A stretch of 64,000 nucleotides of DNA from Candidatus Nomurabacteria bacterium (lineage in GTDB: Bacteria; Patescibacteriota; Minisyncoccia; Phycocordibacterales; UBA9973), in NCBI GenBank assembly GCA_016199805.1, contig JACQGC010000013.1, positions 66,327 through 130,326 on the forward strand. Direction: 5' to 3'. This document shows, piece by piece, positions 8,405 to 54,271 of this stretch; positions within the stretch are counted from its first letter, which is position 1, and every line of letters begins with the position of its first letter. The position numbers and the translations under genes are program-made. The notes under the pieces were generated by a model. That model was not told the origin of the DNA and searched no databases. It was given only the letters and a program-made list of their open reading frames with translations.

Positions 8405-8516
8405 AATTAATTTTACTTATTTAGGCTTATAATCCCGACGTTTCAGTCGGGACCCGACCATAAAGCGTCGGATTTTACTAATGTTTCGCGACCACTGAAA
8501 ACTTGTATAAAGAGAG

Positions 8517-8544
8517 TATATATGATAAGTTGTAGGTATGTCAA
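8517..8544 (-). promoter_or_regulatory. near-consensus sigma70-type promoter for dnaK (TTGACA-16 nt-TATATA on the minus strand)
   Basis: Reverse complement of 8517-8544 reads 'TTGACAtacctacaacttatcaTATATA'. It lies ~105 nt upstream of the dnaK ATG and directly abuts the inverted-repeat element. Confidence 0.5.
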
Positions 8545-8615
8545 GCCCGAACACTTACTTTCAAGACGCGCCATAGGCGCATTGTACTCAATATCTTAAA
8601 AGTAAGTGTGCGGGC
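8545..8615 (+). repeat. 71-bp inverted-repeat/hairpin element, copy A (17-bp arms, 36-nt conserved loop)
   Basis: Arms 'gcccgaacacttacttt' / 'aaagtaagtgtgcgggc' pair at 16 of 17 positions. Loop 'gcgccataggcgcattgtactcaatatc'. The element ends 11 nt before the ATG of the regulator gene and is a homolog of 17236..17306. Confidence 0.7.
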
Positions 8616-8626
8616 AAGCAAAATTT

Positions 8627-14474: not shown

Positions 14475-14517
14475 TTAAGTTATAAAGTTAAAAGTTATAA
14501 AGTTCATAAAGTAAAAC

Positions 14518-15495: not shown

Positions 15496-15539
15496 AGTTT
15501 TAAGTTAAAAGTTTATAATGTTAATAAAGTTATAAAGTT

Positions 15540-16142: not shown

Positions 16143-16182
16143 GGATTTTATTTATACTTTATGAACTTTATAACTTTTTACT

Positions 16183-17024: not shown

Positions 17025-17135
17025 TTATTGCTTTTGTTTATGTTTGGGGTTAGAGCAAATTATTCTTAAATGCCTGGCTCGTCTAACCATTTTGCAATTG
17101 TCACAAATTTTTTTAACGGATGATTTTATTTTCAT
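17025..17135 (-). CDS. rpmJ: 50S ribosomal protein L36 (36 aa; absent from the ORF track because it is under 60 aa)
   Basis: Manual translation of the minus strand: [36 protein letters not shown]. The L36 Cys/His Zn-binding pattern is present. It sits at the canonical position between infA and rpsM. Confidence 0.85.
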
Positions 17136-17206
17136 AATTACAGAAGAAAAACAAGGATAAAACCCTTATTTTTCAATACTCGAACTTATTAAAAATTACA
17201 TTTACT

Positions 17207-17235
17207 ATAATACACTATTACTAAATAAAACACAA
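17207..17235 (-). promoter_or_regulatory. candidate sigma70-like promoter (TTGTGT-17-TATTAT) for rpmJ-rpsM, directly following the hairpin element
   Basis: Minus-strand reading is 'TTGTGTtttatttagtaatagtgTATTAT'. Alternatively this is a U-rich tail of the hairpin acting as a terminator or attenuator. Confidence 0.3.
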
Positions 17236-17306
17236 GCCCACACACTTACTTTTATGATATTGAGTACAATGCGCCTTTGGCGCTTCATAAGAGTAAGTGT
17301 GTGGGC
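17236..17306 (-). repeat. 71-bp inverted-repeat/hairpin element, copy B (same orientation relative to downstream gene as copy A)
   Basis: Arms 'gcccacacacttacttt' / 'agagtaagtgtgtgggc'. The loop is 28 of 29 identical to copy A (as reverse complement). Located between the infA stop (17314) and rpmJ start (17135). Confidence 0.7.
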
Positions 17307-17313
17307 AAGCCCT

Positions 17314-17580
17314 TTACATTCTCTTGACTATTCTGCCTTTTCCCCCATAAGGATCGAGCACTACTTCCACGGAATCCCCTATCAAAACCTTGATTCTGTG
17401 CATCCGCATTTTGCCACCAAGATAAGCCAAAATTTCTTTCCCTTCTTCTCCTTTGTTGCCCCCGCCTGCTCCCGAACTATCGTGAGGGCGGGCAGGAATA
17501 TTGACCCTAAACAAAGTAGAAGGCAGGGCTTCGGTGACAACCCCACGCGCCGTTACAATTTTTTCTTTTGAATCACTCAT
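17314..17580 (-). CDS. infA: translation initiation factor IF-1 with a ~16-aa Gly-rich insertion
   Basis: 'GVVTEALPSTLFRV' and 'GKMRMHRIKVLIGDSVEVVLDPYGGKGRIV' align to the IF-1 S1-like fold. The insertion is 'PARPHDSSGAGGGNKGEE'. Confidence 0.8.
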   Translation of the reverse strand: MSDSKEKIVTARGVVTEALPSTLFRVNIPARPHDSSGAGGGNKGEEGKEILAYLGGKMRMHRIKVLIGDSVEVVLDPYGGKGRIVKRM

Positions 17581-17627
17581 GTATAGACAGTAATTATAAT
17601 AGAATTAAAGAAAAGAGTCAATGAAAA

Positions 17628-22470: not shown

Positions 22471-23280
22471 TTACGTACTTTTTTTGGTTATCGTAAAACC
22501 ATGCCTTTCACCCAAGGTATAAAACACTGCGCCGTCATGATAGCCTATCTCTTCTCCATTCTCATTTAACACTTTTCCTTTTTTTGATTTTATATAATGT
22601 TTTAAAAACTCTTTCAAATCAACCGCGCCCAAAAAGCATATTCCTTGACTGTCTTTTTTCTCCGCCACCGGCAAGTTAAATTTCTTCGCCAACTTGCGAA
22701 CTTCGGTCTTCTCCAAATTCCCAACCGGAAAAATAATTTTTTTTAATTGTTCTTGTCTGAGAGTCCAAAGAAAATATGCCTGATCTTTGGAAGGATCAAC
22801 GCCTTTAACTAAAAGCGTTTTCGGCGCAGAATTTCTCGGCATTACTCCACCCTTCGGGCGGAACCTTCCGCCTTCAAAATTCTGTGTCGAAAACGCTTTA
22901 GCATAGTGCCCCGTGGCCACATAGTCAGCCCCCATCGCTAGAGCTTTTTTGAGAAATGCTCCGAATTTCACTTCTTTGTTGCACATTACATCCGGGTTTG
23001 GCGTACGTCCCGCTTTGTACTCGCGTATCATATAGTCGGCCACTTCTTTTTTATAAACATCTACCAAATCAAAGGTGAAAAATGGAATATCCAAAAAAGC
23101 AGCCACCCGCATGGCGTCCAGGCGTTCTTCCTCTTCGTTGCAGACCAAGAAATCCGGATGCCAGGTTTTGATAAAAACCCCGACGACTTCATAGCCGGAT
23201 TTTTTCAAGAGCGCCACCGATACGGCGCTGTCTACGCCGCCGGAAAGCCCCACAAATACTGTTTTCTTCTTCATAAACAA
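22471..23280 (-). CDS. mnmA: tRNA-specific 2-thiouridylase MnmA, short form lacking the C-terminal domain (269 aa)
   Basis: PP-loop 'GLSGGVDSAV', 'TPNPDVMCNKEVKFG', 'YVATGHYA', 'QAYFLW'. Confidence 0.8.
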   Translation of the reverse strand: MFMKKKTVFVGLSGGVDSAVSVALLKKSGYEVVGVFIKTWHPDFLVCNEEEERLDAMRVAAFLDIPFFTFDLVDVYKKEVADYMIREYKAGRTPNPDVMCNKEVKFGAFLKKALAMGADYVATGHYAKAFSTQNFEGGRFRPKGGVMPRNSAPKTLLVKGVDPSKDQAYFLWTLRQEQLKKIIFPVGNLEKTEVRKLAKKFNLPVAEKKDSQGICFLGAVDLKEFLKHYIKSKKGKVLNENGEEIGYHDGAVFYTLGERHGFTITKKST

Positions 23281-27269: not shown

Positions 27270-27315
27270 AATAATTTAGTTGAAAGTTATAATGTTTTTA
27301 AAGTTATTAAAAGTG

Positions 27316-36012: not shown

Positions 36013-36108
36013 GATGTTTTAGTTAAAAGTTATAAAGTTTTTAAAGTTATAAATAATCTTACTTTACGAACTTTCTACTCTTGTTATTATACACTATGTG
36101 TCAAGAGG

Positions 36109-38042: not shown

Positions 38043-38144
38043 GAAAATAGTATACCCAGTTAGTAGATTTTAGCAATGTAATTTTGAAAAATTACGCGCT
38101 TCACGCCTTGCTAAAACTCACTACTGGGTATATATTAAAAATAT

Positions 38145-38624
38145 ATGAACACAAAGCTCGATGGTACTTTTGGGTTGATTTTTTTTATCTTGAACGGAAT
38201 TACCATATTCCTAGTTTTTTTGGGCATCGTCTGGGTTATCATTACCGAAAAACGCTTAAAAAGATTTTTCTTGGGTAAAAAAGCAAAGGACCTGGAAGAC
38301 ACTATCGTTGTGTTGGAAAACAATATTACAAAATTGTGCAAAGCCAGAGACAACACCGAAAAGGAAGTAGCTTTGATAAATTGCAAACTCAAGAAAAGCA
38401 TTCGTGGACTTGAAACGATACGCTTCAATCCGTTTCCGGACCAAGGCAGTAATCAGAGTTTTGCTATTGGCATGCTAAACGAAGAAGGTGACGGCTTGGT
38501 AATCTCCAGCCTGTATTCGAGGGAGAGAATGAGCATCTTTGCCAAACCGGTGAAAAATGGAAAATCTGAATATGAGCTTTCGGACGAAGAAAGAAGGGCT
38601 TTGGATAAAGCAGAAGTGAAGTAA
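38145..38624 (+). CDS. DUF4446-family membrane protein
   Basis: N-terminal TM; 'RFNPFPDQGSNQSFAIGMLNEEGDGLVISSLYSRERMSIFAKPVKNGKSEYELSDEE' matches DUF4446 conserved blocks. Confidence 0.55.
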   Translation: MNTKLDGTFGLIFFILNGITIFLVFLGIVWVIITEKRLKRFFLGKKAKDLEDTIVVLENNITKLCKARDNTEKEVALINCKLKKSIRGLETIRFNPFPDQGSNQSFAIGMLNEEGDGLVISSLYSRERMSIFAKPVKNGKSEYELSDEERRALDKAEVK

Positions 38625-38658
38625 GTTACAAAGTAGAAAGTTATAAAGTTAAACAAAA

Positions 38659-43977: not shown

Positions 43978-44415
43978 TTATTGAACTACGGGTACTGTAG
44001 GAAGCGTAATGTTTGCACTGTTACCGACATTGAAAAATGTGTTTTTCAAAACATTTACAAGTCCCCACATACCGATAATCACAGCCAAACCGATGATGCC
44101 GTAAATAATTCTGTCTCGTCCTCTTGTCTTTGCCTCTTCGTCATTGGCAACAACGAAGGTAATGACTCCCCAGACAAAGTAAACGACTCCTAGGGCTATC
44201 AACACAGGAACTACAGCATTTAGAAATACTCCGATTCTGCATAGTAATCCAAACAAAGTTGCGTTTTGTCCGGCATAGGCTGCAGGATCGCAAGATGTAG
44301 TACTACCATTTATAGTAACCTGCGCGAATGCGACGATAGGCGCTAAAGCGAAAAACACACCCGACAATACCATTAAATTCTTTTTCATACGATTTTGCGA
44401 AATCGTGTCGCGCAA
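43978..44415 (-). CDS. small two-TM pilin-like protein, array member 5 (145 aa)
   Basis: Signal peptide. 'VPVLIALGVVYFVWGVITFVVANDEEAKTRGRDRIIYGIIGLAVIIGMWGLVNVLKNTF'. Confidence 0.45.
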   Translation of the reverse strand: MRDTISQNRMKKNLMVLSGVFFALAPIVAFAQVTINGSTTSCDPAAYAGQNATLFGLLCRIGVFLNAVVPVLIALGVVYFVWGVITFVVANDEEAKTRGRDRIIYGIIGLAVIIGMWGLVNVLKNTFFNVGNSANITLPTVPVVQ

Positions 44416-44525
44416 CCGTCCTTTAAGCGCGACGCAATTAACGAACTTATAATAAATGCGACCTAATAATAATTAAACTAATAATGTTACTTAATTATAC
44501 CCCTTGCCCAAATATGAAGCAAATT

Positions 44526-47684: not shown

Positions 47685-47715
47685 TTTTACTTTACGAACT
47701 TTATAACTTTCTACT

Positions 47716-48231
47716 TTATAACTTCCTTAAGATTATACCATAATGGTGCGCTCCGGCATCAATATCGCGAACCCAGGCAAAACCTTTTTTTTCAAACATC
47801 GTCCGCGCTTTTTCCCTGGGTACAATTCCGCCCCCTTTCATGATAGACTCCTCCGACCAATCAACCAAAAGCACCTTGCCGTTTGGCTTCAATATCCTTT
47901 TTATCTCCTCGATAAATTTTTCTTTGTCTTCAACCTGGAAGAGTACATTTGAAGCTATGGCTACATCCACTACTGTGTCGGCAATTTTCGTGCCACCCAG
48001 TTTTTCAATATTTCCCCAGATAATTTCCACGTTCGAGAGATGCGCTTCTTTTACCTTATGTTTGATGGTATCCAGAAAATCTTTCTGTAATTCAACGGCG
48101 TAAACTTTTCCCCGGGGCACGACAGCTCCGGCCGCCACGGAATAAAATCCGGTCCCAGCGCCCAAATCAGCCACGATATCATTTTCAGCAAGTCCCAAAG
48201 TTTTTAAATTTTTTACCGGGTCGGTAAACAT
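47716..48231 (-). CDS. class I SAM-dependent methyltransferase
   Basis: Motif I 'VADLGAGTGFYS'. 'LKPNGKVLLVDW'. Confidence 0.7.
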   Translation of the reverse strand: MFTDPVKNLKTLGLAENDIVADLGAGTGFYSVAAGAVVPRGKVYAVELQKDFLDTIKHKVKEAHLSNVEIIWGNIEKLGGTKIADTVVDVAIASNVLFQVEDKEKFIEEIKRILKPNGKVLLVDWSEESIMKGGGIVPREKARTMFEKKGFAWVRDIDAGAHHYGIILRKL

Positions 48232-51597: not shown

Positions 51598-51660
51598 AGA
51601 GAATTCAGGCAATTCAGCCTCACCCCCTACCCCCTCTCCAGAGTACTGGCGAGGGGAAAA
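51598..51660 (+). repeat. GC-rich imperfect palindromic repeat, copy 1 ('cctcaccccctaccccctctccagagtactggcgaggggaaaa')
   Basis: About 92% identical direct repeat of 51862..51925. Internal hairpin CCCCTC-U-CCAG-AGUA-CUGG-C-GAGGGG. Confidence 0.7.
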
Positions 51661-51715
51661 CTCACAACATAAATTTTTACTGGCGGTGCTCCTTGAAGGT
51701 GCGACCGCCAGCGTT

Positions 51716-51826: not shown

Positions 51827-51861
51827 GGCGCCTCCAAATAAGATATTACAACTATGGAATA

Positions 51862-51925
51862 TTTAGTCAATTCCGCCTCACCCCTTATCCCCTCTCCAGA
51901 GTACTGGCGAGGGGAAAATACAAAA
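51862..51925 (+). repeat. GC-rich imperfect palindromic repeat, copy 2
   Basis: 'caattccgcctcaccccttatcccctctccagagtactggcgaggggaaaa'. Confidence 0.7.
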
Positions 51926-54204: not shown

Positions 54205-54212
54205 AACTAAAT

Positions 54213-54262
54213 CAAGCACAAAAAAAAGAACGCCTAAGCGTTCTTTTTTTTGTGCTTGATAT
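54213..54262. terminator. bidirectional rho-independent terminator between convergent genes
   Basis: 20-bp perfect inverted repeat 'aagcacaaaaaaaagaacgc-ctaa-gcgttcttttttttgtgctt'. Confidence 0.75.
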
Positions 54263-54271
54263 CAGTATTTT

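Follow-up and report, generated by a model that had tools for sequence, protein, structure and literature searches.

The window analyzed here, a 64,000-nt stretch of Candidatus Nomurabacteria DNA, contains the same long hairpin twice: copy A lies in front of a gene for a PaaX-like winged-helix protein, and copy B lies inside a ribosomal protein operon, between infA and rpmJ. The question raised by this locus is why one hairpin with one loop should stand in two unrelated gene contexts. The initial annotation considered this recurrence unusual and suggested that the hairpin may be an attenuator or terminator or, alternatively, an operator. [quoted passage not shown] The recurrence of the loop is real, and mobility, rather than a regulatory meaning, would explain its two contexts.

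The hairpin family and its probable insertion at the infA-rpmJ junction

The features discussed are collected in Table 1. As first described, the stem of copy B (GCCCACACACTTACT / AGTAAGTGTGTGGGC, 17306-17236) begins 7 nt after the infA stop codon (TAA, 17316-17314) and ends 100 nt before the rpmJ start at 17135. Its minus strand corresponds to the plus strand of copy A (8545-8615), with 87% identity over 71 nt, and the stem is followed by the U-rich tail cuuguguuuuauuu and by a promoter-like sequence, TTGTGT-17-TATTAT. Placement, orientation and flanks all agreed with our coordinates, except that the outermost G-C pair of the stem is part of the flanking CTTG duplication and lies outside the true element. 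The predicted folding energy is -46.9 kcal/mol for copy B (z = -9.05 against shuffles) and -35.7 kcal/mol for copy A (z = -6.8).

Whichever strand is read, the element folds into a 21-bp outer stem (P1) around two mini-hairpins of 4-5 bp, P2 (GCGCC-NNN-GGCGC) and P3 (ATTG-TACT-CAAT). Members of the family are 67-71 nt long with the common ends CCCGCACAC...GTGTGCGGG, and every copy has terminal inverted repeats of 12-15 bp (CCCRCACACTTA...TAAGTGTGYGGG), a feature of MITEs. In the window, the 15-mer of the arm gave 4 matches at three or fewer mismatches, compared with 0.65 expected, and the covariance model, run with filters off, found exactly two copies, the next match (26.7 bits) being a generic terminator hairpin. 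No window copy beyond A and B was found by arm search, inverted-repeat scan or covariance model. The window hairpins at 54206-54265, 1291-1344, 38048-38135 and 22807-22904 are unrelated. With the P2-P3 core as the query, a collection holding a single genome for each species yielded seven loci, from Saccharibacteria, Nomurabacteria and unclassified Patescibacteria, and a metagenome scan anchored on P3 and the 3' arm yielded 20 loci, 18 of them real (L013 and L014 were discarded as chance matches). About 24 distinct copies are found across CPR genomes and metagenomes, small, non-coding and dispersed as MITEs are. A viral-contig scan for a phage origin found nothing.

After removal of duplicates, 22 copies were aligned. 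Standard pairs were formed in 95.6% of the cells, compared with 30-50% when the 3' partner was slid by one to three columns. Twelve pairs had changed on both sides in a compensatory manner, and on four of the five measures none of 500 shuffles reached the observed value. The arms keep their sequence over the outer 12 nt, while free covariation is seen in P2 and in the inner part of P1; the conservation of P3 was forced by the search patterns and carries no weight. A sense-strand RNA had first been suspected from G·U wobbles in P2, and was dropped when the full count of non-Watson-Crick cells gave 17 A·C and 9 G·U. Since there is no excess of G·U over A·C, the hairpin appears to matter either as DNA or in both of its strands, and not as a strand-specific RNA. 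Rfam gave no match in the whole window at the gathering threshold, and between 17100 and 17400, at E values up to 10, it gave only spurious hairpins resembling microRNA precursors (28.6 bits against a threshold of 100).

Insertion is indicated by the flanks of the copies. Immediately outside the CCC...GGG ends, exact 4-nt duplications were found in 18 of the 24 distinct copies and 5-nt duplications in two more (TAGCA in L026 and TCAAA in L027). The eight different 4-nt flanks depend on the site, again as in MITEs: CAAG (copy A, L012 and L024), CTTG (copy B and L017), TAAA (L001 and L020, the twin of L008), TTTA (L004, L016 and L025), ATAA (L002 and L005), TTAT, which is ATAA on the other strand (L007 and L022), TCTA (L006) and TCAA (L015). 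These target duplications speak against an element of the IS200/IS605 type, the chemistry of which leaves none. Integron attC and IS91-like targets (CAAG/GAAC) were rejected because the flanks vary between copies and are duplicated.

The junction itself could be compared with orthologous spacers, which were reached through IF-1 homologues. The element was absent from L028 (IF-1 identity 88%), L030, L031 and L033 (82%), L052 (83%), and L053 and L054 (81%). Five close relatives have an empty orthologous site with a single GTTG, where the window has CTTG-element-CTTG, as a MITE insertion leaves it. The relatives read ...GGGGTTG followed directly by TAATTTTTT..., compared with ...GGGCTTG, the 69 nt and CTTGTGTTTTATTT... 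in the window, and the difference is a clean gap of 73 alignment columns. The initial annotation had proposed this comparison and had named absence from close relatives beforehand as one of the results that would speak against its regulatory reading; absence was what we found. At exactly the position of the copy B junction, L029 (IF-1 identity 81%; 1115-1147) carries a palindrome of 29-31 nt, CCCCGCACCAAGCC-GAA-GGCTTGGTGCGGGG, with ends related to the element and no clean duplication. Either a related element struck the same hot spot independently, as a second hit, or this palindrome is what remains of a decayed copy; both are possible origins.

The copies are intergenic and very often lie 0-17 nt past a stop codon (L001, L003, L004, L005, L006, L007, L011, L015, L016, L017, L027 and copy B). 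In Saccharibacteria, copies adjoin rpsG/fusA, clpP, ruvC and surface-protein genes. Judged from the asymmetric interior, the copies face their neighboring genes in either orientation, antisense being about as frequent as sense. In L001 and L004 the element occupies the same site at the rpsG stop codon, with the same TAAA flanks and in opposite orientation; by hand comparison, a flip of the whole element and an inversion of the loop only are nearly equal in the arm differences they imply (2 and 3). Landing sites and orientations of this kind do not suit an mRNA leader, an attenuator or the operator of a single regulon. At least five independent insertions, counting both hairpins and the GIY-YIG units described below, fell at TGTGGATAA^C, a perfect DnaA-box-like 9-mer, with ATAA duplicated (L002, L003, L005, L007, L018, L022, L059 and L060), which points to a strong target preference or to a link with regions bearing DnaA boxes.

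Table 1. Features of the window around copies A and B of the hairpin element, and sites of an unrelated 13-mer.
Feature	Position	Strand	Remarks
Copy B, core element, 69 nt	17237-17305	-	CCC...GGG ends; covariance model 92.2 bits
Copy B, P1 5' arm	17305-17285	-	
Copy B, P2 (GCGCC-AAA-GGCGC)	17283-17271	-	
Copy B, P3 (ATTG-TACT-CAAT)	17270-17259	-	
Copy B, P1 3' arm	17257-17237	-	
Copy B, left target-site duplication CTTG	17306-17309	-	Single GTTG here in relatives
Copy B, right target-site duplication CTTG	17233-17236	-	TTG doubles as start of the -35-like hexamer
infA (IF-1, 88 aa), upstream gene	17314-17580	-	PF01176; 100% match to Candidatus Nomurabacteria IF-1
infA promoter, sigma-70-like, strong (TTGACT-17-TATAAT)	17593-17621	-	11/12 in consensus scan
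rpmJ (L36, 36 aa), downstream gene	17025-17135	-	Gene kept in relatives
Promoter-like site, whole (hexamers and 17-nt spacer)	17207-17235	-	Conserved in L028, L029, L030, L052 and L053
Promoter-like site, -35 TTGTGT	17235-17230	-	
Promoter-like site, -10 TATTAT	17212-17207	-	
Second conserved spacer block, TTGAAAAATAAGGGTTTTATCCTTGTTTTTCT (also given as TTGAAAAATAAGGGTTTTNTCCTTGTTTTTCT)	17144-17176	-	From alignment; outside the putative mobile element
Copy A, core element, 69 nt	8546-8614	+	93.5 bits; 12 nt before the start codon (ATG) of the PaaX-like gene
Copy A, left target-site duplication CAAG	8542-8545	+	
Copy A, right target-site duplication CAAG	8615-8618	+	
PaaX-like winged-helix protein, 183 aa	8627-9178	+	PF20803 PaaX_M, 5.6e-19; adjoins copy A only
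13-mer AAGTTATAAAGTT	14477-14504		
13-mer AAGTTATAAAGTT	15527-15539		
13-mer AAGTTATAAAGTT	16164-16176		
13-mer AAGTTATAAAGTT	27284-27296		
13-mer AAGTTATAAAGTT	36027-36039		
13-mer AAGTTATAAAGTT	38623-38650		
13-mer AAGTTATAAAGTT	47697-47724		

A GIY-YIG gene with the same ends

At three loci (L001, L004 and L018) a gene for an 84-aa GIY-YIG protein stands between copies of the hairpin sequence, which may be full elements, 28-nt palindromes in which the two arms are joined (CCCGCACACTTATGCATAAGTGTGCGGG) or a solo arm. The protein has no domain besides the catalytic one (PF01541, 1.3e-16) and, among proteins of known structure, is closest to UPF0213 (PDB 1zg2, E = 7e-7). A homology search gave 894 matches at E <=1e-10; the best 120 of these 894 were 65-100% identical to the L001 query, and many came from Patescibacteria. 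Arms were found beside the gene in all nine protein clusters sampled, namely the three initial loci and six further clusters. Five clusters, 82-90% identical to the L001 query, occupy the position between rpsG and fusA and are always flanked by hairpins. These flanking elements differ in P2/P3 (for example GCACC/GGTGC, GTTGC/GCAAC, GCAGC/GCTGC and GTGGC/GCCAC) and have the same architecture, with scores of 50-70 bits. The 28-nt palindromes, which are perfect or near-perfect (L001, 1597-1624 and 1921-1948; L004, 1350-1377; L055, 1274-1301), consist of two element arms head to head and flank the GIY-YIG gene without target duplication; in L055, one of them is nested as an insertion within the P2 loop of a full element.

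Three clusters form tight single-gene units of 295-317 bp with inverted repeats of 16-17 bp, in three different neighborhoods. The unit of L046-L051 (295 bp) has the ends CCCGCACACTAACTTT...AAGTTAGTGTGCGGG. The unit of L059 (317 bp), directly past the stop codon of a glycosyltransferase gene, reads (GATAA)CCCGCACACTTAACCTC..gene..GAGGTTAAGTGTGCGGG(GATAA), and that of L060-L062 (317 bp), inside TGTGGATAAC, reads (ATAA)CTCTCACACTTAGATAT..gene..ATATCTAAGTGTGCGAG(ATAA), so that the target duplication is clean in two of the three. Behind the L046 unit, the 3' end of the upstream xerC/D-like integrase gene recurs as a decayed duplicate (1380-1475 and 1771-1840, the same in L047-L051; YTHITDKQLRDVHKKFHSKK* compared with YTHVTDQQLRKVHQQFHSKNKKS*). 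It looks as if this unit had arrived together with a replacement gene end, and the duplicate implies that flanking DNA can travel with the GIY-YIG unit.

Formally, the tight units are built like an insertion sequence in which a GIY-YIG nuclease takes the position of the transposase, and the comparison suggests that the 69-nt hairpins relate to them as MITEs relate to their parent insertion sequences. Most likely the hairpins would be mobilized in trans, by a unit that shares their ends, and the 295-317-bp GIY-YIG element is the only such unit seen. The nuclease may recognize the branched hairpin or cruciform that the ends form, much as structure-specific nucleases of the Slx1 type do, and apparently prefers TGTGGATAA^C-like and stop-codon-proximal targets. 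We suggest, as a tentative proposal that could well be wrong, that prokaryotes have a further, new class of transposable elements, in which the hairpins are the non-autonomous members and the autonomous form is a unit of about 300 bp with an 84-aa GIY-YIG protein, 16-17-bp repeats and a 4-5-bp duplication. It would be a system like REPIN/RAYT or like MITEs and insertion sequences, but with GIY-YIG chemistry at its base. Such a unit is far smaller than any insertion sequence known to us. The genomes of CPR bacteria are tiny, few transposons have been described from them, and no description of GIY-YIG-linked MITEs or inverted-repeat elements in CPR/Patescibacteria was found in the literature collection that we searched.

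Copy A and explanations other than insertion

The locus of copy A has a positional orthologue in L024, where dnaK (90% identity over 70 aa) and the PaaX-like gene (57% at the protein level) are syntenic and a paralogous 552-aa gene follows. The L024 element lies in the same place with the same CAAG flanks and is 83% identical to copy A, with compensatory changes in P1 and P2, and the distal spacer is only about 60% identical. Copy A is nearer to the copies in L006 and L027 (94%) than to this orthologue. Selection, conversion between copies and repeated hits at ATGTCAAG could each produce such a pattern. Within the region upstream of copy A (8405-8541), the nearest 60 nt or so (AAAACTTGTATAAAGAGAGTATATATGATAAG...) are conserved with L024, and the rest of the spacer between dnaK and the PaaX-like gene is not. 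This block is probably the promoter of the PaaX-like gene, so that copy A would lie within the 5' untranslated region of that gene. Specific to the window are two short hairpins, one at 8438-8455 (CCCGACGTTTCAGTCGGG) and one at 8458-8475 (CCGACCATAAAGCGTCGG).

The regulatory explanations of the initial annotation can be weighed against these data. An attenuator or terminator that evolved to uncouple infA from rpmJ-rpsM-rpsK-rpsD-rpoA-rplQ, working with an internal promoter, would account for a very stable stem on the sense strand between the two genes, for the U-rich tail after it and for the conserved promoter immediately downstream. We consider such a dedicated cis-regulatory RNA very improbable, because the hairpin is missing from the same spacer in five close relatives, is surrounded by the CTTG duplication, belongs to a dispersed family that is antisense to its neighbors about as often as sense, and has no sense-strand excess of G·U, and because the U-run is older than the hairpin. 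What survives of that claim is termination, which is plausible as a side effect of the insertion only. The alternative that the PaaX-like protein binds the palindrome, and that copy B places the ribosomal protein genes under this regulator, drew on the position of copy A just upstream of the PaaX-like ATG; the arrangement is kept in L024, and the outer arms are conserved in sequence as a protein-binding site would be. It deserves very little credence, since among the fetched loci tblastn found the PaaX-like gene only at copy A and L024, the Saccharibacteria copies have the quite different neighbors listed above, and copy B appears to be a recent insertion. Moreover, the protein is itself a weak and partial PaaX match (TIGR02277, 34.7 bits against a cut-off of 264.55), and the PaaX box of E. 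coli (TGATTC...GAATCA) is not in the element. A second operator is thus not supported.

Two further explanations concern the family as a whole. The three-helix architecture with its many compensatory changes, the nearly invariant bases near the junction (GA...TC and the run after P3) and the scores of 50-70 bits that are still reached by variants with different P2/P3 would all suit a small structured non-coding RNA gene, either a trans-acting RNA or a ribozyme, present in two copies. However, there is no match to an Rfam family, the A·C and G·U counts favor neither strand, the flanks of the copies are unrelated with no conserved promoter or terminator, the target duplications show insertion, and the conservation of P3 is in part a product of the search patterns; an RNA gene of this kind is highly improbable. 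An unlikely explanation, but one of more substance, is that the hairpins are long-lived, non-autonomous elements retained for their usefulness, for example as terminators or RNA stabilizers, and not parts of a purely selfish transposon. A domesticated GIY-YIG gene, present once and inherited vertically, would service them. It overlaps with the mobile-element interpretation and resembles the REPIN/RAYT system, in which single-copy transposases persist vertically with non-autonomous hairpin elements (PMC3116915; bioRxiv 10.1101/2022.05.22.493013). It is favored by the GIY-YIG gene at the same rpsG-fusA position in five clusters, always with flanking hairpins, by the retention of copy A at an orthologous site and by the clustering of copies just past stop codons. 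On the other side stand the target duplications, the three tight GIY-YIG units with inverted repeats in three neighborhoods, which look autonomous, a copy number far below that of REPINs, and the lack of an HUH enzyme.

Insertion of a MITE-like element remains the interpretation that we prefer, and several observations weigh against it. Copy number is low, with two copies in the window and at most three per locus. The interior architecture covaries even across subfamilies with different P2/P3 (L034, L040 and L055), and a plain MITE does not need a conserved, covarying interior. The persistence of copy A at the orthologous L024 site, with compensatory changes and in spite of only 57% identity of the PaaX-like proteins, suggests selection, gene conversion or re-insertion and not neutral junk. 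The L029 palindrome may leave room for a precise loss in the relatives. A consensus terminator scan did not list the copy B hairpin, the loop of which is branched. As for the mobilizing enzyme, the role of the GIY-YIG nuclease is one that we infer from the shared ends. GIY-YIG nucleases are not known as transposases and can cut DNA but not ligate it, and tblastn found no GIY-YIG gene within the 64 kb. At the sampled loci no DDE transposase with these ends was seen, although no long-range scan for one was made, and it is possible that another transposase with the same ends is encoded elsewhere in these genomes.

Among known systems, the family is closest in form to the bacterial MITEs, such as the Correia elements of Neisseria, RUP, ERIC and MITEAba12. 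Like these, it is small, non-coding, intergenic and hairpin-folding, has terminal inverted repeats and short target duplications, shares its ends with a larger coding element, and could create terminators or alter neighboring transcription. It differs in that the only coding element seen with these ends encodes a GIY-YIG nuclease and not a DDE transposase, in the covarying three-way-junction interior kept across subfamilies, and in a very low copy number combined with a class-level spread in the CPR at 83-94% identity. With REP/REPIN-RAYT systems it has in common extragenic hairpin palindromes near gene ends, long persistence at orthologous sites, and a small nuclease-type gene that is flanked by the same palindromes and often single-copy at a fixed locus (PMC3116915, PMC3337134). 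RAYTs, however, belong to the HUH/Y1 enzymes, and GTAG/CGTC tags mark the REPs (PMC3733652). The gene flanked here encodes a GIY-YIG protein, the ends are CCCGCACAC, starting with CCC, and duplications of 4-5 bp, which REP/REPIN-RAYT systems lack, are the rule. The tiny gene wedged between the conserved rpsG and fusA also recalls the free-standing GIY-YIG homing endonucleases (phage T4 seg and others), and so does the duplicated 3' end of the neighboring gene in L046, as when a flank moves along. Homing endonucleases have DNA-binding domains beside the catalytic domain and are not known to have terminal inverted repeats or to leave a target duplication, in contrast to the bare 84-aa catalytic domain, the 16-17-bp inverted repeats and the ATAA/GATAA duplications seen here.

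Candidate promoter and possible termination signals in the operon

The candidate internal promoter proposed by the initial annotation has held up well. The motif TTGTAA/TTGTTA-17-TA(T/C)NAT, with an invariant GTG before the -10 hexamer, is kept in position and spacing in six of six infA-rpmJ spacers, the window having TTGTGT as its -35. The site matches the sigma-70 consensus at 8 of 12 positions, which is below the threshold of the consensus scan, and was not listed by it. With hexamers, 17-nt spacing and GTG conserved across relatives, comparative support is good for TTGTGT-17-TATTAT as a candidate promoter of rpmJ-rpsM-rpsK-rpsD-rpoA-rplQ. It is present with or without the hairpin, and since relatives lacking the hairpin conserve it, the promoter-like site is older than the insertion. 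The element would have entered at (C/G)TTG, 3-4 nt past the stop codon of infA and exactly where the -35 of the older candidate promoter has its 5' edge, and the right-hand CTTG duplicate would have restored the TTG of the -35 and so let the promoter survive.

The insertion may also have created a termination signal. In the relatives, nothing terminator-like lies between infA and the T-run, compared with a 21-bp GC-based stem before CUUGUGUUUUAUUU in the window; the T-run is older than the hairpin. Transcripts from the infA promoter would meet the new hairpin and the old T-run, which together form a de novo signal resembling an intrinsic terminator. Similar to such terminators, copy B has a GC-based stem and a U-rich tail on the sense strand just past a stop codon. 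It differs from them in the 21-bp length of the stem, in the branched 27-nt interior, in the offset of the U-run by 4-5 nt (CUUG), where a typical terminator has a small loop and a U-tract within 0-2 nt, and in its apparent origin by insertion and not in situ. The hairpin should give at least partial termination, or act as a 3' stabilizing hairpin for infA transcripts, and the downstream genes would then lean more on the conserved internal promoter. The combination of terminator and internal promoter may be a present-day consequence, of which the hairpin half is an accident of transposition.

The second conserved block of the spacer (17144-17176) contains a small AAGG/CCTT hairpin and a U run, is kept in L028, L029, L030 and L053, and has no Rfam match; lying so close to the start of rpmJ, this block may serve the rpmJ-rpsM operon as leader or attenuator. 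The IF-1 protein of this lineage (17314-17580) has an insertion, roughly PARPHDSSGAGGGNKGEEGKE, that is not known from typical bacterial IF-1, and its closest relatives are similarly long (85-90 aa). A 13-mer, AAGTTATAAAGTT, has 18 matches in the window at two or fewer mismatches, compared with 4.5 expected, often as two copies 15 nt apart. It occurs in both orientations in intergenic spacers, including rplQ/rpoA, rpoA/rpsD and rpsD/rpsK of the same operon, and appears to be a second repeat family or an array of binding sites, unrelated to the hairpin. Other repeats in the window, likewise unrelated to the hairpin element, are a 65-nt pair (51603-51667 and 51861-51925, 88% identity, with CCCCTCTCC...CGAGGGG), a 37-nt pair (655-691 and 44390-44426, 89% identity) and a hairpin with 23-nt arms and a 42-nt interior (22812-22899).

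As a feature of the operon, the hairpin is ordinary, and it should not be taken for conserved regulation of ribosomal protein genes. The locus instead offers a natural comparison, with and without the hairpin, for polarity in a CPR ribosomal operon. The repeated hits on DnaA-box-like sequences and just past stop codons raise questions of target choice. If mobilization by the GIY-YIG nuclease were confirmed, the enzymes known to move DNA in prokaryotes would gain a new class, with an element common to Saccharibacteria and Nomurabacteria, and the compact structure-recognizing nuclease and its substrate would make a pair of biochemical interest.

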